Positions 3,021-19,508 of a DNA stretch of 26,039 nt are shown piece after piece. The notes under the pieces were generated by a model. The model saw only the letters and a list, made by a program, of their open reading frames with translations, was not told where the DNA came from and did no database searches. A program made the translations under genes and the position numbers. The first letter of the stretch is position 1. Every line of letters starts with the position of its first letter. The stretch covers positions 1-26,039 of the IMG/VR virus record IMGVR_UViG_2690315742_000005. The stretch is one strand, 5' to 3'. The DNA is from a virus. Taxonomy: Duplodnaviria; Heunggongvirae; Uroviricota; Caudoviricetes.

Positions 3021-3301
3021 TAGTGCCTCAGATGATCAACCAGACGTGCAACGTTGCCTCTGACAGCCACCAGCACGGAAAGAAAAATAGTGTTCGCCAC
3101 GATAATGGGCCATGAGGAATGGGGATAAATCCCACAGAGATAGGCCAACGGAACAGCACTGTATGTAACAGTAATCAGCCAGGCTAAACGTGAAACCCAA
3201 GGACGATGCCGCGAATCACCACGACGATAAAACATCAGAGTAATAACAACACAAGCACATAACAGCGCATTTATAGTTGCTGTCGGGTCATTTAGCTCCA
3301 C
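3020..3301 (-). CDS. holin/antiholin-like small membrane protein
   Basis: 93-aa ORF with 2-3 hydrophobic helices, immediately upstream of and overlapping the endolysin start. Confidence 0.55.
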   Translation of the reverse strand: MELNDPTATINALLCACVVITLMFYRRGDSRHRPWVSRLAWLITVTYSAVPLAYLCGIYPHSSWPIIVANTIFLSVLVAVRGNVARLVDHLRH

Positions 3302-9791: not shown

Positions 9792-10620
9792 GACGATGCC
9801 CTCCGCTGATATTCAGGAGACGGTGAATATGAAAATTAGCCTTATCCGCCAAACGAATACGTTCAGCCTGCAAGTTAAGAAGCGTTTCTACCAGAACCTG
9901 ATGCGCCTGCGGATCCGAAAGAGTTACCTTGCGCAGAGCACGTAGTGCAGTTGTTACATAACTGAGTTTATGTAAGTCTTCATCATTCAGACGAGTGAGG
10001 GCTGGGACAGTAGCCATGATGGCAGCCTCCTTGATCGGTGAAATACTTCCACCACCGGAAACGCCAATTTCGCTGGTGGTGAACTGAACGGGGTTGGCGT
10101 AACCGGTGATCAAGGAAACCGGCGCATCTTTCGATGCCCCCGCCCAGCCCACCATAACTTTGATGTGAGCAAATGCGGACGATAAAAAAGACGCTGGCGC
10201 GTCATATATCGCCTTGATCAGTTCCAGGACGCCAATCCCGGCACCCGCTTTATAAGGTGCCTGAACAGTGTAACGTCCCGGAATGGCAGAATCAATGTGC
10301 TGGTGGTCCTTCACACTCAACAAAATCACGCCTGAATTTCCACAAAGGACTAAAGCACTCATGCGGGTAGTCTTTGCGAAGATAGATAACGCGCTGTGTT
10401 TCTGGCTCCCAACGAATAACATGGACATAAAGCCCTCTTCCGTCACGAAACCAGCGGTTAAGTTCCTGCACAACTCGCCCCCCACAGTCAGGTAAAGTTC
10501 TCTGTGGTTACTTACAGCCAGGTGATTTGGTAATCTGCATTCATGCCGTAACAACAGGTGTTCAGCGACGCTGACCACCAGCTGTTGCGACAAACGGTTA
10601 TTTGCCGTTAAACTGTTCAT
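9784..10620 (-). CDS. hypothetical protein (early operon, unknown function)
   Basis: 278-aa ORF in operon context between the cII-position gene and the replication gene; Gly-rich stretches (GWAGASKD, GVSGGGS) but no confident family assignment. Confidence 0.5.
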   Translation of the reverse strand: MNSLTANNRLSQQLVVSVAEHLLLRHECRLPNHLAVSNHRELYLTVGGELCRNLTAGFVTEEGFMSMLFVGSQKHSALSIFAKTTRMSALVLCGNSGVILLSVKDHQHIDSAIPGRYTVQAPYKAGAGIGVLELIKAIYDAPASFLSSAFAHIKVMVGWAGASKDAPVSLITGYANPVQFTTSEIGVSGGGSISPIKEAAIMATVPALTRLNDEDLHKLSYVTTALRALRKVTLSDPQAHQVLVETLLNLQAERIRLADKANFHIHRLLNISGGHRHA

Positions 10621-11412: not shown

Positions 11413-11502
11413 ACAATATGTACCTCCGGTATACATATTACATGATTGAAATGAACCTTCAAGATACTTGTACCTTATCGGTACAAAGGTTTTAATTTCG
11501 TT
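11413..11502. promoter_or_regulatory. divergent cro/cI control region with operator-like dyads
   Basis: 90-bp intergenic region containing ACTTGTACC-ttatc-GGTACAAAG (11467..11488) and ATATGTA-N9-TACATAT (11416..11438), both sharing a TGTACC/GGTA(C/T)A core. Confidence 0.45.
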
Positions 11503-12177
11503 ATGAAAACAATCCATGACATCCGGCGGTCTAACGCCAGAAAACTGAGAGATGGTGTTGGCGGAAATTCATCCTTTGCCACCATGATTGATCGCGAGCC
11601 AACCCAAACCAGCAGGTTTATGGGGGATGGCGCTACTAAAAATATCGGTGACAGCATGGCACGGCACATCGAAAAATGTTTCGACCTGCCTGTCGGATGG
11701 CTTGATCAAGAACACCAGACAACGAACATCACAAAAAAACCTGATGTTTCAATCACTAACAAACAAATAACGTTAGTCCCTGTCATATCATGGGTACAGG
11801 CCGGAGCATGGAAAGAAGTTGGCTATTCTGAGGTTGATTTGAGCACAGCAGAAACTTATCCCTGCCCTGTACCCTGTGGCGAAATGACTTATATCTTGCG
11901 GGTGATTGGTGATTCAATGATTGATGAGTACCGCCCTGGAGACATGATTTTTGTTGATCCCGAAGTCCCTGCCTGCCACGGTGACGACGTTATTGCATTG
12001 ATGCACGATACAGGCGAAACTACCTTCAAGCGATTGATAGAAGATGGAACACAGCGTTATCTCAAAGCATTAAACCCAAACTGGCCTGAGCCTTACATTA
12101 AGATTAACGGTAATTGCTCTATAATTGGTACAGTGATTTTCTCGGGAAAACCAAGAAGATACACAATAAAGGCCTAA
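11503..12177 (+). CDS. CI-like prophage repressor (HTH plus S24 LexA-like peptidase domain)
   Basis: 224-aa ORF; C-terminal region VISWVQAGAW...VIGDSMIDEYRPGDMIFVD...FKRL carries the Ala-Gly cleavage site and Ser/Lys dyad pattern of S24 peptidases; divergent from the cro-like gene. Confidence 0.85.
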   Translation: MKTIHDIRRSNARKLRDGVGGNSSFATMIDREPTQTSRFMGDGATKNIGDSMARHIEKCFDLPVGWLDQEHQTTNITKKPDVSITNKQITLVPVISWVQAGAWKEVGYSEVDLSTAETYPCPVPCGEMTYILRVIGDSMIDEYRPGDMIFVDPEVPACHGDDVIALMHDTGETTFKRLIEDGTQRYLKALNPNWPEPYIKINGNCSIIGTVIFSGKPRRYTIKA

Positions 12178-12195
12178 TCAATATTTATGAACCTG

Positions 12196-12222
12196 CTTCG
12201 GCAGGTTTTTTTATACTTGACA
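12196..12222 (+). terminator. rho-independent terminator after the repressor gene
   Basis: Hairpin AACCTGC-TTCG-GCAGGTT followed by TTTTTTTAT, 19 bp after the cI-like stop. Confidence 0.65.
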
Positions 12223-12921
12223 ATGTACCCATGAGATACATAATGTATCCAAAAGAAACATGAGGCAGGCAAGATTCAAACAAAATTTGGTTGTAACACG
12301 GCGTATGGCACATGCGTCGTTAGCGGTCTGGGGACGTTAAAGGGGACAATCCACTCCTTGCTCGGGCAAACAAACCAGGTAGCCGGAATGTGCAAGTCAA
12401 TGATGATGCTGATAAGACGCCTAACCAGCGTGGCGATCCGGTTTGACGCCTGGGAAGAGACCAGGGTGCAACGATGAGGGCATTTATGGAGCCGCGACAA
12501 AGTGTGGTGCCGTAACTGGCTAAGTGCTCTCAGCGTTGTGGTCATCCGCGAAATGGCGCGGCGGTAAGTATGGCTGGGTTACTCTTTCCCCGTTGAGGAC
12601 ACCGGATTGTCAGGTTGACCATACGCCTGAGTGACAACCCCACCACAACAGCCACTGCTTTGGCGGTACCAGTTTGTACACTTGCTTCCGGCTGGTACCG
12701 CTCTTTTTACAAAACAGAGAAGAGCATCACCGGACGACGGGCTCATAACCCAATCCATCCGGGCGGCGGTCACCGCAGGTGTTCTTCTCTGTTTTGTGGA
12801 GAAACTAACCGCCCCTGCGGGGGCATCTATTGAAACGTAATTGCTTAATAATCGCCGGATGGCGAGGGCTTCCTTTTCCCAAAATTCAGCGCAGTGCAGC
12901 GCATATAAAGTGGAGAACGAA

Positions 12922-13458
12922 ATGTCATTTATTAAAACTTTTTCCGGGAAGCATTTTTATTATGACAAGATAAATAAAGACGACATCGTTATTAACGATA
13001 TCGCGGTTTCCCTTTCAAATATCTGTCGCTTTGCTGGTCATCTTTCACACTTCTACAGCGTCGCCCAACATGCGGTGCTTTGCAGCCAGCTGGTACCGCA
13101 GGAATTTGCTTTTGAAGCGTTAATGCATGATGCAACAGAAGCGTATTGCCAGGACATCCCGGCTCCACTGAAACGCCTTCTTCCTGACTATAAACGGATG
13201 GAAGAAAAAATAGACGCCGTAATCCGTGAGAAATACGGGTTACCCCCGGTTATGAGTACACCCGTGAAATATGCCGATCTCATCATGCTGGCAACCGAAC
13301 GCCGCGATCTCGGGCTTGATGATGGCTCTTTCTGGCCTGTGCTGGAAGGTATCCCGGCAACAGAGATGTTCAACGTGATTCCACTGGCTCCAGGCCATGC
13401 CTACGGGATGTTTATGGAACGCTTTAACGAATTATCGGAGTTACGCAAATGCGCATGA
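12922..13458 (+). CDS. HD-domain phosphohydrolase (YfbR-like 5'-deoxynucleotidase-like)
   Basis: ORF 12841..13458; start placed at ATG 12922 (GGAGAA RBS 6 nt upstream). The H..(H) ... HD pattern (AQHAVL ... LMHDATEAY ... PAPLK) parallels YfbR (EHSLQVAMVAH ... MYHDASEVLTGDLPTPVK) as I recall it. Confidence 0.65.
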   Translation: MSFIKTFSGKHFYYDKINKDDIVINDIAVSLSNICRFAGHLSHFYSVAQHAVLCSQLVPQEFAFEALMHDATEAYCQDIPAPLKRLLPDYKRMEEKIDAVIREKYGLPPVMSTPVKYADLIMLATERRDLGLDDGSFWPVLEGIPATEMFNVIPLAPGHAYGMFMERFNELSELRKCA

Positions 13459-14289: not shown

Positions 14290-15416
14290 CAATCAGGAAA
14301 CACCGCCAGGGAGAAACGATCAATATAACTTTCACCTACAAAGGAGTTAGATGTCGTGAGCCGCTTTCCAATCTAGAAGTAACACCAAAGAACATTAAAT
14401 ACGCCGAGCGTACACTCGGCGAAATCCATAATAAGATCGAAAGGGGAACATTCATTTATGCAGAATATTTTCCCCGTTCTGCTCGTTTGAAAATTTTTGG
14501 TAATGCTGCTGCAGGCAAAACGGTAAAGATGTACCTGGACGAATATCTTGAAATCTGCGAAACAAGAAAACTTTCACCCTCTACGATTGGTGGCTATAAA
14601 AAATGCCGTAGTGCGTTAGCCTCACTTCACATTTGCCCTGCAAGTGAATTAACACCAGCAACCCTGAAAGCGTGGATTCAAAGCCAGAAAACAACCTTAA
14701 AAACCATTCGCAACCAGTTATCTTTCCTGCGGTCAGCACTTGATGAAGCCGTGACCGATGGGGTACTTCAAATTAACCCCGTATCGTTAGTAACAGCTTC
14801 GCGCTACCAAAGTGATAAGTCAGAAGCAGAAAGCAGCTATGTGGTTGATCCGCTATCACCAGCAGAAGTTGATGCATTATTAGCAGCAGCCGGAAACAAA
14901 CAATGGGAAAATCTGTTCCGGTTCGCCATACATACAGGCCTGCGTAGTTCTGAATTATGTGCCCTTCGATGGCGTGATATCGACTTTGTTGGAAAAACTG
15001 CCCATGTCCAGAGCGCAAGTGTTGTCGGTGTTATCAAAGGGACAAAGACAAAAGCAGGTACTCGTAAAGTTGAACTGACAGAAGAGGCAATGTTGGCGCT
15101 GATAAATCAGAAGCCATTTACATTCATGAAGGATGCTACTGTCTTTGAAGACCCAAAGACCAATAAGCCTTGGGCAAGTGCTGATGCAATAAGGAAAAAA
15201 GCATGGGTGCCAACATTACGAAAAGCAGGTATTCGTTACAGAAACCCATATCAAACCAGGCATACATTCGCCACCCGCCATATCAGCCGGGGAGCGAACC
15301 TGTTTTGGCTTGCAGCTCAAATGGGGCATAAAGGGCCTGAGATGCTTTTCAGGCACTATGGTCGATATCTCAAAGAATACGACGGAAAAAGCTCCATCAA
15401 ATACATTATACAATGA
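14250..15416 (+). CDS. tyrosine integrase (lambda Int family)
   Basis: 388-aa ORF; N-terminal arm-binding-like domain; C-terminal catalytic region with conserved R (TGLRSSELCALRW), HTFATRHISRGANL and GHKGPEMLFRHYGRYL (H-x-x-R ... Y). Confidence 0.9.
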   Translation: MGQTKLLKLPRGVTIRKHRQGETINITFTYKGVRCREPLSNLEVTPKNIKYAERTLGEIHNKIERGTFIYAEYFPRSARLKIFGNAAAGKTVKMYLDEYLEICETRKLSPSTIGGYKKCRSALASLHICPASELTPATLKAWIQSQKTTLKTIRNQLSFLRSALDEAVTDGVLQINPVSLVTASRYQSDKSEAESSYVVDPLSPAEVDALLAAAGNKQWENLFRFAIHTGLRSSELCALRWRDIDFVGKTAHVQSASVVGVIKGTKTKAGTRKVELTEEAMLALINQKPFTFMKDATVFEDPKTNKPWASADAIRKKAWVPTLRKAGIRYRNPYQTRHTFATRHISRGANLFWLAAQMGHKGPEMLFRHYGRYLKEYDGKSSIKYIIQ

Positions 15417-15428
15417 TTATGGCGGCAT

Positions 15429-16058
15429 TTATTGCCGCCCACATAATTCATTATGCCATTTATCCAAGTAACAATCCAATTGTTTTAATGTTTTCAATAC
15501 ATATACAGGCTTACGTGGCGGATGATTTTTTTGAAAAGAATCATATAAATGCATTATGAAATCGACACAAGCACTAGATACATTCTGAGCGCGAAAAACC
15601 CTATATGACTTATTAAAACAATATGATTTCTCACATTCCATAGTAGCTTCATCTATAATATTAGAAAAATACGAAATTGTTATTTTTATCCCCCTCTCAT
15701 CGAGAAGATTAATGTATTTATTTATTTGTATGGCTTTTCCATGAATTGCCGTTAAATATATTTTCGCCGACTGAGTATGCAATCCATTAGAGTTCTTAAA
15801 ATTTTTTTTCTTAAATGGATTAGAATCTGGTGGTGTTGACTTATTAACCCAGTAATCCAGAGACAAATCTGATATTTCGTTTAAAATTTTAGCAATCGCA
15901 TCTATAATCGATTTAGATTCAGAGCGAGTAGCAATCTTCAGTGAATTATTGTAAGTAACAAACCATCCAATAAACACTAAGATAATACTCACAACACTAA
16001 ACATCCATGCGTAAGTGGACACCCCTGCAAGGGTGTCCTTAATATCAACGGTGTTCAA
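15429..16058 (-). CDS. hypothetical membrane protein (third gene of AT-rich cargo operon); start uncertain
   Basis: ORF 15429..16142; predicted TM helix (MFSVVSIILVFIGWFVTY) then Lys/Asn-rich soluble domain; very low GC. Candidate starts: TTG at 16058 (GGAG 5 nt upstream, 1 nt after the upstream stop), ATG at 16004, or ATG at 16142 (would overlap the upstream gene by 83 nt). The 3' end overlaps a hairpin (15423..15441) shared with the convergent int gene. Confidence 0.5.
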   Translation of the reverse strand: MNTVDIKDTLAGVSTYAWMFSVVSIILVFIGWFVTYNNSLKIATRSESKSIIDAIAKILNEISDLSLDYWVNKSTPPDSNPFKKKNFKNSNGLHTQSAKIYLTAIHGKAIQINKYINLLDERGIKITISYFSNIIDEATMECEKSYCFNKSYRVFRAQNVSSACVDFIMHLYDSFQKNHPPRKPVYVLKTLKQLDCYLDKWHNELCGRQ

Positions 16059-16059
16059 A

Positions 16060-16401
16060 TCAACTCCTTTGGAAAGGCTTCCTTTCTGGATTAGCCATTT
16101 CAATATATCTAAAAATTTGATCTTTATAGAACGGCAAATCACTTTTTATAATTAGTTTTGCCTTAATGTCAGCCTTAGGTACACCTTCCTTCCTAACAAG
16201 CCCTCCAAAGGCCTCCTCTAGAAACGAAGAACCAATCCCATGATTTATACCCGTAAAATCTACGACAACCTCACGCTCACCAGATTTTAATGCAGGAACC
16301 AGAAAGTCCTTACGAAAACGCTCAGCACTGTTCGGGCTGTCAGACTTGAACCTTCCAAATGGCATCTTTGAGAAATCCCTTGCTATGACGATGTTAACCA
16401 T
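16060..16401 (-). CDS. STAS-like (anti-sigma-factor-antagonist-like) small protein
   Basis: 113-aa ORF; EVVVDFTGINHGIGSSFLEEAFGGL matches the STAS/SpoIIAA-like pattern (hydrophobic strand, D-F/L-S/T-G-V, then SSGL/SSFL helix); start overlaps the upstream gene stop by 8 nt. Confidence 0.5.
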   Translation of the reverse strand: MVNIVIARDFSKMPFGRFKSDSPNSAERFRKDFLVPALKSGEREVVVDFTGINHGIGSSFLEEAFGGLVRKEGVPKADIKAKLIIKSDLPFYKDQIFRYIEMANPERKPFQRS

Positions 16402-18407: not shown

Positions 18408-19508
18408 TTATTCCATTTCAAGATCATCAATCTTCACTTCGAGTTCAATACTGGTTGTAAAACCGTTATCCGGGCTGACGGTATGTGTCAGAGTCGTAAT
18501 GGTCCATTCCGCATCATCTATCGGCTGTTTAAAACCACTGACCTTCACAGGCATTTCCGTGTAGAGATCTGCCCGCCCTTCTGCCAGTTGTAGCGAAAAT
18601 GACGCAACGCCGCGTTGCAGGCGTTCCCACTGCATTTTCGCCGCTCGTTCGGCGTTGCTCCGGTTGGCATAAGTGCGATTAAGTACCAGCACGTTTTCAT
18701 CCGTACCCACCAGGTAATCGCCCTGCTTCGCTTCTGGCTCTTTCTTCTGCTTCTTAGTTCTGCGCTTACGCTTCACCGTGGTGCTTTCTTTCTTCGCAGG
18801 TTCGCGGGTATGCAACCAGCTGGCAATTACGCCCGTGTAGGCTCCGCGATCTGCCAGGGTAAATCGGTGACTGTCGCCGTCCTTGCGTGTGATAGTGATC
18901 ACTGGCAGAGGTTTACCAGTGGCGCTTTTGCCCTGCCCCTGCCGGATGAATAACAGATTGCCATTTTTCACCGACGCGATGGCACCGTACTGTCGCGCCA
19001 GCCGCATCAGAAAACTGCCGTCACTCTCATTAGTCTGGTCTATATGCTCCACGGGCTTATCCGACAGGTCTTTACCCAGTGCCATCTTCAGCTTGTGCCG
19101 CGCGGCTATTTCCTTCACCACTTCCCCGACGGTGGTCTTATGCCACGATTTTTCACGGCGGGTATTCAGCGTTTCCCGAAAATCAGCACTTCGCGCCCGG
19201 ATAGTCAGGCGGTCCGGTGCGCCAGTGTGTTCAATCTCGTCCACTGTGAATGCCCCTTTCGGGAAAAGCGGCTGCCCCTTCCAGCCCAGCGCCAGCGTAA
19301 TAACCGCACCACGGCGCGGCAGCACGATTTTTCCGTCAGCGTCATCCAGCTCCAGATCAAGCTGGTCCGCTTCAAAGCCCCGGTTATCCGTCAGCGTCAA
19401 ACTCATCAGGCGGTTATCCAGCACAGTGGTGATATCCCTGCCCTCAATACTGATGCTGAATGCGGGAGTTTTGTTGCCTTTGTTAAGCAGTTCAGAGCTG
19501 AAATTCAC
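18408..19508 (-). CDS. D: P2-like tail protein D
   Basis: 366-aa ORF directly downstream of U and upstream of ogr, the conserved P2 order FI-FII-E-T-U-D-ogr; size and character fit gpD. Confidence 0.8.
   Translation of the reverse strand: MNFSSELLNKGNKTPAFSISIEGRDITTVLDNRLMSLTLTDNRGFEADQLDLELDDADGKIVLPRRGAVITLALGWKGQPLFPKGAFTVDEIEHTGAPDRLTIRARSADFRETLNTRREKSWHKTTVGEVVKEIAARHKLKMALGKDLSDKPVEHIDQTNESDGSFLMRLARQYGAIASVKNGNLLFIRQGQGKSATGKPLPVITITRKDGDSHRFTLADRGAYTGVIASWLHTREPAKKESTTVKRKRRTKKQKKEPEAKQGDYLVGTDENVLVLNRTYANRSNAERAAKMQWERLQRGVASFSLQLAEGRADLYTEMPVKVSGFKQPIDDAEWTITTLTHTVSPDNGFTTSIELEVKIDDLEME

Follow-up and report, generated by a model that had tools for sequence, protein, structure and literature searches.

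A probable early-left operon leader built from conserved RNA modules, with a DicF-position hairpin, in an SfV/cdtI-type lambdoid prophage

The gap between the repressor gene and yfdR

The stretch of DNA analyzed here (26,039 nucleotides, positions 1 to 26,039 of IMG/VR record IMGVR_UViG_2690315742_000005, hereafter the window) is an Escherichia coli lambdoid prophage of the SfV/cdtI/mEp460 type. It carries a leftward Cro-like gene and a rightward gene for a LexA/CI-type repressor (11503-12177), and between the repressor stop codon at 12177 and the ATG of yfdR at 12922 lies a gap of 744 bp, which is the subject of this report. The Prokaryotic Genome Annotation Pipeline (PGAP) leaves this gap blank in a genome that is identical over the 746 bp queried. 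A preliminary description, prepared from the letters of the window, had pointed to roughly 700 bp of GC-rich sequence in this place lacking a credible open reading frame (ORF). This is borne out, as nothing is annotated there and G+C is 0.55-0.56 across 12300-12800 versus 0.35-0.46 in the flanks. The gap before the HD-domain gene is also real, although its right-hand limit had been given as 12921, one base off the yfdR start codon. The yfdR gene has a GGAG sequence 7 nt upstream of its ATG and is followed by small genes and then by an integrase gene.

We consider it very probable that the interval is the untranslated 5′ leader of a repressor-controlled early-left operon, and that it consists of tandem, mobile RNA modules, including a hairpin-terminator in the slot that the small RNA DicF occupies elsewhere. 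In order, these modules are A, the A2 hairpin, B, the hairpin-terminator at the DicF position and hairpin C (Table 1). A BLAST comparison with phage genomes splits the interval into pieces that are found separately elsewhere. The modules are thus mosaic. The inverted repeat of the DicF-position element (the dyad) is independent of immunity type. The leader folds are conserved, specific to the plus strand and backed by compensatory changes. Among the possibilities raised in the preliminary description, a structured non-coding RNA is the one that prevailed, because five elements have folds supported by compensatory changes in relatives from other phages and genera. The same document had suggested folding with covariation across related prophages, and this approach indeed supports the leader folds.

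Table 1. Positions in the window of the features in and around the proposed leader
Feature	Position	Strand	Basis and remarks
Intrinsic terminator of the CI-type repressor gene	12189..12208	+	Terminator scan; hairpin and T-run
pL-type early-left promoter	12217..12244	+	Promoter scan; TTGACA, 16-nt spacer, CATAAT
oL-like operators	12224..12260		Pattern search; overlap the promoter spacer, -10 hexamer and start site
Module A	12286..12465	+	Multi-helix RNA of ~180 nt; homologues, structure test and covariance model
A2	12467..12540	+	Long imperfect hairpin of ~28 pairs; joins A to the next unit
Module B	12535..12649	+	Cloverleaf-like four-way junction; Qin homology and structure test
DicF-slot small RNA and intrinsic terminator (dyad)	12655..12708	+	Position and 5′ arm as in DicF
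Module C	12704..12802	+	Hairpin with 25-bp stem; -51.2 kcal/mol, z = -8.4
Small G+C-rich hairpin	12811..12824	+	GCCCC-UGCG-GGGGC; no U-run
yfdR (HD-domain 5′-deoxynucleotidase)	12922..13458	+	First protein gene of the operon in the window; PGAP

A repressor-controlled promoter at the left edge

Phages Ayreon and SfV have a terminator annotated at the position that corresponds to the one following the repressor gene here. Just beyond it is a pL-type promoter that matches 11 of 12 consensus positions, and the annotators of phage Ayreon independently predicted both a promoter and a terminator at this spot. Transcription is predicted to start near 12251. The sites in the cro/cI intergenic region yield the operator consensus TGTAY-N7-RTACA, for which perfect matches occur only at 11419-11435, 11469-11485 and 12224-12240, with a copy carrying one mismatch at 12244-12260. 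The oL-like site is 75% identical to the oR site at 11418-11437. Because real operators and a promoter are present at the left edge, the interval to their right corresponds to the 5′ part of a transcript. The suspicion that an oL-like operator might reside in the interval was therefore correct with regard to this left edge, where the sites overlap a near-consensus promoter, but not with regard to the dyad for which it had been proposed.

Several observations concern the adjoining end of the repressor gene. The segment comprising the cI 3′ end and its terminator (window 12100-12274) is 91% identical to SfV, and a small RNA called svsR has been placed at the cI 3′ end in an SfV-like prophage (PMC12803456). 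Sub-threshold Rfam matches to STnc370 and STnc50 on the minus strand (12179-12253) appear to stem from the bidirectional terminator. The published small RNAs svsR (cI 3′ end) and Pas and HnrS (late regions) were considered as counterparts of the leader elements; their positions differ, and none corresponds to any element of the leader. Among the papers searched by sequence, none contains the invariant strings described below, and a search for P1 transcriptome work found nothing relevant.

The leader does not encode protein

The leader region is non-coding. Variable sites were sorted by codon phase and indel lengths were recorded among homologues, with cI and yfdR serving as controls. Substitutions in the three phases number [29,28,28] for 12295-12465 (p = 0.99), [8,11,12] for 12466-12650 (p = 0.66) and [14,16,20] for 12651-12810 (p = 0.57), as opposed to [33,16,138] for cI (p = 4e-31) and [22,16,83] for yfdR (p = 2e-15). 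Furthermore, 98 of the 101 indels in the leader are not multiples of three, whereas the only indels of the flanking genes are in frame.

The alternative that the leader is a decayed or unrecognized protein gene, perhaps with a non-ATG start or on the minus strand, is very improbable on this evidence, since there is no periodicity in any phase and the indels shift the frame. Its best argument comes from the PHROG families. The minus-strand ORF at 12579-12773 (64 aa) matches phrog_3651 at 9e-38, a plus-strand ORF matches phrog_33599 at 7e-17, and hypothetical proteins are annotated over the leader in some phage records. However, the phase counts of the minus-strand ORF are [9,6,11] (p = 0.48), Pfam has no match for the seven ORFs queried, and PGAP calls no gene. 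The four ORFs listed in the preliminary description are present and, as stated there, overlap one another on both strands. The ORFs matched by four PHROG families (phrog_3651, phrog_33599, phrog_8854 and phrog_38074) lie on both strands of one stretch of DNA (window 12276-12840), and in phage cdtI the annotated orf40 over leader DNA overlaps orf39 on the opposite strand. Because both strands are matched and no coding signal is present, we judge these matches to be spurious, and the PHROG families over the interval were probably built from spurious gene calls on non-coding DNA. The suggestion of a decayed gene thus found no support.

By comparison with shuffled sequences, the leader (675 nt) is unusually structured (z = -5.0). 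Both strands give z values near -5, with fold energies of -260 kcal/mol for the plus strand versus -232 kcal/mol for the minus strand. The folds are rich in G-U pairs, and their plus-strand versions are the more stable ones. An Rfam scan, which had been among the checks suggested earlier, was run: at the gathering threshold nothing is found in the interval, and no family is matched even at E ≤ 10. Rfam 15 has no family for A, A2, B or C, and matches across 12150-12950 are at chance level (E 0.2-7). No tRNA or tmRNA is recognized in any module by ARAGORN and the Rfam tRNA model.

Module A, a widespread RNA of temperate phages

Module A stands apart from the other modules as an early-phage RNA under strong conservation. 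Its landmarks in the window are a stem around TATGGCACATG (12304-12314), an invariant 19-mer, GGTAGCCGGAATGTGCAAG (12378-12396), that is identical across more than 10 genera, and two hairpins near the 3′ end, at 12417-12431 and at 12449-12465, the latter with the invariant loop GGAAGAGA. Other invariant strings are UAUGGCACAUG, AGCGGUC and GGUAGCCGGAAUGUGCAAG. The structure was examined with 24 diverse sequences (alignment A3), six helices and 500 shuffles. In this alignment, 94.5% of cells are paired and 11 pairs are changed on both sides (59 such cells), which none of the 500 shuffles equaled; when the partners were slid as a control, only 1-4 pairs showed a two-sided change. The GGUCYGG/CCRGGU helix alternates between C-G and U-A in 13 versus 11 sequences, and the two 3′ hairpins contain three covarying pairs each. 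Because of its numerous G-U pairs, the fold is specific to the plus strand. A GGCACAU/AUGUGC pseudoknot is preferred by RNAalifold and is a possible addition to this model; both of its sides are invariant, so that it is without covariation.

The module recurs in very different settings. In P1 it lies at 71010-71194, starting two bases past trnI and ending before ban, with 78% identity. In the epsilon15-like phages (phiV10, SPN1S, PAT1 and a Klebsiella phage) it is followed by tRNA-Arg(UCU), and its orientation is opposite to that of the flanking structural genes. In mEp390 it is found behind the repressor. Beyond these phages, it is present at 24 loci from other genera of the Enterobacteriaceae (Kosakonia, Phytobacter, Citrobacter, Kluyvera, Klebsiella, Erwinia, Pseudescherichia, Buttiauxella and others). 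Of the 5426 complete E. coli genomes searched, 1375 carry it, and 256 of its places are on plasmids. The matches listed for module A and for the dyad hairpin are unannotated, apart from one partial match under a hypothetical protein. A covariance model of the module scores the window at 166 bits and finds no further copies in SfV, ST64B, phiNP, Qin, a Rac-like phage or the rest of the window. Module A appears to represent an undescribed structured RNA family of temperate enterobacterial phages.

One idea of what such an RNA might do draws on its location, as module A typically begins 10-75 nt beyond a promoter of the TTGACA type. The put RNAs of HK022, a lambdoid phage without N, are likewise structured RNAs, and putL lies just downstream of pL (PMC9378689). 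They suppress termination in cis without a protein factor, and this depends on the zinc-binding domain of the beta′ subunit of RNA polymerase. It is conceivable that the modules, and above all A, act in cis on RNA polymerase in the same manner, permitting read-through of DicF-type and later terminators without N. This would be compatible with our reading of the interval as a leader, and it gains some appeal from the fact that the annotations of this operon, and those of cdtI, mEp460 and SfV, show no N-like gene, and that the leader terminator precedes all early-left genes. However, BLAST of the HK022 pL and pR regions reveals no similarity and the A model finds nothing in HK022. The architectures also differ, in that put RNAs are two stem-loops of ~70 nt, while A is ~180 nt with at least five helices. 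Moreover, the copy of A in P1 is 2.3 kb from the promoter and directly before ban, with no terminator between, and Qin expresses dicB beyond the DicF terminator without having module A. We therefore regard a put-like role as quite unlikely.

The A2 hairpin and its junction motif

Module A is connected to the next unit by A2, which folds at -35.5 kcal/mol (z = -4.6) on the plus strand versus -24.3 kcal/mol on the minus strand and would be a substrate for RNase III. It is kept in phiV10, where it adjoins tRNA-Arg. The 3′ strand of A2, AGTGCTCTCAGCGTTGTGG, is a recurrent junction motif. It stands ahead of B in the window and in Qin, ahead of tRNA-Arg in phiV10, and ahead of A in sequences from Klebsiella, PAT1 and Erwinia, much as a marker of cassette borders might do.

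Further occurrences of this motif and of the A/tRNA unit can be described by locus. The motif, in the form CGTWAA...RGTGCKCTYYCAGSKTGTGG, lies at window 12510-12541, at about 19225-19258 of locus L136, at about 2700-2742 of L005, and upstream of A in L129 and L131. In epsilon15-like phages, A and tRNA-Arg(UCU) form an opposite-strand unit between the terminase and portal genes (L005 2501-2818, L128 1380-1802, L129 1380-1745). In SPN1S-type sequences this unit has its own TTGACA promoter and a dyad, TTACCTTTTAGGTAA, and looks like a regulated moron. A tRNA-like fragment with the T-arm motif GGTTCAATTCC, which is not called by ARAGORN, lies ~70-110 nt after A in L092, L095 and L128; it may be a tRNA remnant in a cargo slot.

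Module B is shared with the DicF precursor

Module B is closed by a stem of GTTGTGG (12535-12541) with CCACAAC (12643-12649) and carries a hairpin at 12546-12561, a middle arm with a pyrimidine-rich loop, and an arm around CAGGTTGACCAT (12611-12622). In the structure test, 94.5% of cells are paired and 8 pairs are changed on both sides, versus 2.8 +/- 1.2 in shuffles, with none of 500 shuffles as good. The segment 12535-12657 is 87.8% identical to positions 1649251-1649373 of the K-12 Qin prophage, ending 8 nt before dicF (1649382-1649434). The module is also present right after the C1-controlled promoter Pban of P1, where it overlaps an annotated "dicF-like region".

DicF is released from the dicBp transcript as a 190-nt form, whose 5′ end is made by RNase III, and as a 53-nt form, whose 5′ end is made by RNase E, and both forms end at an intrinsic terminator (PMC10448788; PMC5069750). 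By simple arithmetic, counting 190 nt back from the DicF terminator gives a start at about 1649251, the base at which the homology begins. Because these two starts coincide, module B corresponds to the body of the long DicF form.

The shape of module B invites another view of the whole array, in which the modules are mainly processing punctuation: tRNA-derived or tRNA-like folds and hairpins that steer RNase III, E or P, with A having no role in trans. Indeed, B is a four-way junction with a closing stem of 7-8 bp, and tRNA genes occupy the same slots elsewhere: in phiV10, SPN1S and a Klebsiella phage A2 is followed by tRNA-Arg, and in P1 tRNA-Ile immediately precedes A. The recurrence of the A2 junction motif ahead of different cargos would also fit. 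On the other hand, the long invariant single-stranded strings of A, including the 19-mer, exceed the needs of a cleavage signal, and no module is recognized as a tRNA. For these reasons, punctuation alone seems an unlikely explanation. An identification of module B as a tRNA was likewise discarded after ARAGORN and the Rfam tRNA model proved negative, as only the topology of a four-way junction is held in common.

The dyad is a predicted hairpin-terminator in the DicF slot

The preliminary description drew attention to a perfect 10-bp inverted repeat followed by TCTTTTT. This feature is confirmed, with fully complementary arms, as GCGGTACCAG-N19-CTGGTACCGC at 12663-12672 and 12692-12701. The pairing extends to 13 pairs (12662-12674 with 12690-12702) that enclose the 15-nt loop UGUACACUUGCUUCC, and TCTTTTT follows at 12702-12708. 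The hairpin has a predicted energy of -21.5 kcal/mol (z = -3.6; 1 of 200 shuffles as good), with the plus strand being more stable. It recurs in other genera with compensated stems, and a hairpin of the window type is found in 1593 of 5426 complete E. coli genomes.

This element shares several attributes with DicF. It belongs to a repressor-controlled early-left operon, lies directly 3′ of the precursor segment, and ends in a predicted terminator consisting of CUUUUU after the 13-bp stem. It also keeps the DicF 5′ arm, TTTGGCGGTAYCAGTTT (UUUGGCGGUAYCAGUUU), with the 3′ arm having co-varied to give a perfect stem and the loop being different. A survey of 152 places carrying the module B anchor in the fetched loci places about 76 in the canonical DicF type, about 38 in the window type, about 20 in the P1 type and about 12 among other variants of the same design with other pyrimidine-rich loops, and 6 are unrelated chance matches. 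The slot thus contains a graded series of hairpin-terminators with a common 5′ arm, for which the Rfam DicF model gives 58.9, 38.8 and 30.3 bits and then no score. The 30.3-bit variant (locus L188) has the stem of the window, and its loop retains UUUCUCUCC, a full complement of GGAGAGAAA of the ftsZ ribosome-binding site. We read the dyad element as a diverged DicF homologue that fails the curated model. Because its loop differs from that of DicF and the ftsZ complement has been lost, its targets have probably changed.

An entirely different function had been offered for the dyad, namely that of a distal oL-like operator. In such a reading, the CI-type repressor would bind there and allow the DNA to loop to the cro/cI operators. 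Repressors of the lambda type do use distant operators, and the GGTACC and TGTACA hexamers in the hairpin look like operator half-sites. However, their order and spacing are wrong for TGTAY-N7-RTACA, so that the echo of the operators is superficial, and no match to the consensus exists at the dyad even with one mismatch, the sites being confined to 11419, 11469, 12224 and 12244. In 45 of the 71 loci with the same dyad, the immunity region is unrelated and has other operators (of the TTGCA...GCAA type), and in Citrobacter and other variants the stem is kept while TGTACA is lost. The element also occupies exactly the position of DicF. An operator for the resident repressor was accordingly rejected, as it fails with respect to both the consensus and co-occurrence with the cognate immunity region, and we consider this alternative scarcely credible.

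Module C and a small hairpin

The 5′ strand of module C begins inside the U-run of the terminator. Its apex is branched and conserved, with CGACGGGCTCAT at 12735-12746. Of its 36 consensus pairs, 7 have compensatory changes, and several invariant U-G pairs fit only the plus strand. The module is also present in SfV, ST64B and phiNP, upstream of the first early-left gene, and would act as an RNase III processing site for read-through transcripts. The small hairpin at 12811-12824 varies in sequence among relatives (for example, CGACCTTGCAGGGTCG and GGCGGTTGCAGCCGCC) with its pairing kept.

A proposed course of expression

It seems reasonable to speculate, by analogy with dicBF, that the leader is used as follows. 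The repressor would shut off the rightward promoter (12217-12244) through the operators at 12224-12260. Upon loss of the repressor, many transcripts would stop at the hairpin with its U-run (12702-12708), so that the primary RNA would measure ~455 nt. RNase III might then cut long stems, either A2 or the closing stem of B, to free module A, which would be ~220 nt long when counted from the start site, together with a ~175-nt DicF-like RNA (12535-12708). The latter could pair with host mRNAs via its exposed pyrimidine-rich loops. Read-through RNA, trimmed at hairpin C, would carry yfdR, xis and int.

Several observations weigh against this interpretation of the interval and its DicF-like element. 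The start site, termination and processing of the leader RNA are predictions. The Rfam DicF model (RF00039; gathering threshold 48 bits) has no match in the window and none at E ≤ 10 on 12150-12950. The loop of the window element contains no complement to the ftsZ ribosome-binding site, and no complement to the dyad loop exists within the window; a full-length duplex prediction against ftsZ gave an uninformative score. Compared with Qin, ~19 nt are missing between B and the hairpin (12 nt here versus 31 nt). These missing nucleotides hold the DicF 5′ seed, UUUCUGGUGACG, which is used for xylR, and the AU-rich RNase E site, so that the short DicF-like form may not be made here and the long form may be the active one. 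The U-run has only five U residues, and the terminator scan, with its loop limit of 8 nt, missed the hairpin. Module B by itself is not unusually stable (z = +0.5). Finally, the minimum-energy fold of the single sequence pairs the 3′ half of A with B rather than forming the local hairpins supported by covariation, and the fold in vivo may therefore alternate between local hairpins and A-B pairing.

The 3′ half of A (12426-12462) and the center of B (12577-12617) are complementary over ~40 nt (-46.2 kcal/mol, z = -4.7, 0 of 500 shuffles), and so are the A and B copies of P1 (locus L004, about 3136-3190 versus 751-806; -50.7 kcal/mol, z = -4.2, 1 of 500 shuffles). When A and B are taken from phages that have just one of these modules, complementarity is lacking (z = -1.2), and pairs that reside together stay compatible through C-G, U-G and U-A combinations. 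The A-B pairing may reflect a second fold of the leader, a duplex on which RNase III acts, or kissing of GGAAGAG, the invariant purine loop of module A, with the pyrimidine loop of B.

Relationship to known systems

Loci of the dicF type are an already known kind of element, with the dicBF operon and the "dicF-like region" of P1 as examples. New here are the seed-variant form, the tRNA-like precursor body and, above all, module A. The resemblance to DicF in K-12 Qin is extensive, as both lie downstream of a prophage repressor gene in a repressor-controlled early-left operon, with the same ~120-nt module before them (88%), the common 5′ arm, a hairpin and U-run at the end, and a long stem after, before the next gene. 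Unlike Qin, the window lacks ydfABC and dicB and has A and A2 upstream instead; its 3′ arm and loop differ, and the ~19-nt gap, the lost ftsZ complement and the lack of an Rfam match have been described above.

The ban leader of P1 contains both B (the "dicF-like region", 68791-68892) and A (the trnI-ban spacer, 71010-71194) in the same orientation within a repressor-controlled early operon. There, B is followed by its own hairpin and T-run, with a hairpin sequence unrelated to that of the window. In contrast to the window, the two modules of P1 are 2.3 kb apart, in the order B then A, with three tRNA genes and tciABC interspersed.

STnc100 (RF02076), a prophage small RNA, is relevant because Qin-type leaders and P1 have sub-threshold matches to this family immediately after DicF, in the slot taken by module C here. 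However, the window has no such match even at E ≤ 10, and the fold of module C is different. The matches, which score 30-39 bits (gathering threshold 47), are at L135 2266-2450, L183 4701-4923, L210 5002-5155, L162 5296-5444 and L004 (P1) 2071-2190. This suggests that the STnc100-like matches are another diverged module family in leader arrays.

The C4 RNA of P1 and P7 is cut by RNase P, and the tRNA cluster of T4 contains the species 1 and 2 RNAs. These are also non-coding RNAs in phage transcription units by tRNA genes that are freed by host nucleases, although they have no sequence relationship to the modules, and C4 itself lies elsewhere in the window. That C4 antisense RNA is at window 10072-10159 (minus strand, 82 bits) and adjoins isrK at 10184-10260 (minus strand, 63 bits), both above the Rfam gathering threshold and upstream of an ash/antirepressor-type ORF. 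The pair is an RNA-controlled antirepressor module of the P1 immI/Gifsy-1 type inside the right operon. At the other end of the prophage, just past the integrase gene, G+C drops sharply to 29-38% at window ~15400-16100 and beyond. In the genome without a difference over the 746 bp queried, an ATP/GTP-binding protein and an RloB-family protein are annotated past the integrase, and this stretch may be defense-type cargo at the prophage end.

Implications

Module A and the hairpin variant occur in roughly one quarter to one third of complete E. coli genomes, and annotation pipelines leave them blank because no Rfam model recognizes them. Several PHROG "protein families" over the leader look like artifacts of ORF calling. 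DicF affects cell division, sugar metabolism, phage resistance and the virulence of enterohemorrhagic E. coli. A family of RNAs in the DicF position, with the same scaffold and different loops, would imply that prophages retarget this regulator, and in that case counts of "DicF copies" would underestimate the repertoire.

Perhaps module A is a new functional RNA class (~180 nt, with five or more helices, perhaps a pseudoknot, and the 19-nt string) that is early-lytic in lambdoid, P1-like and epsilon15-like phages and acts on a host machine or protein, such as RNA polymerase, the ribosome, an RNA-binding regulator or a defense system, rather than serving only to guide processing. Alongside this, the DicF slot would work as a "seed-swapping" cassette: module B and the stem would form a constant scaffold, and the loops on it could be exchanged to retarget the small RNA. 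We offer this combined proposal tentatively, as possible but short of probable. Regardless, module A is common to P1, epsilon15-like and lambdoid phages, which places it in the best-studied phage-host systems. It is found by tRNA genes and is under strong constraint, and a possible new role for phage RNA can therefore be put to the test with it.

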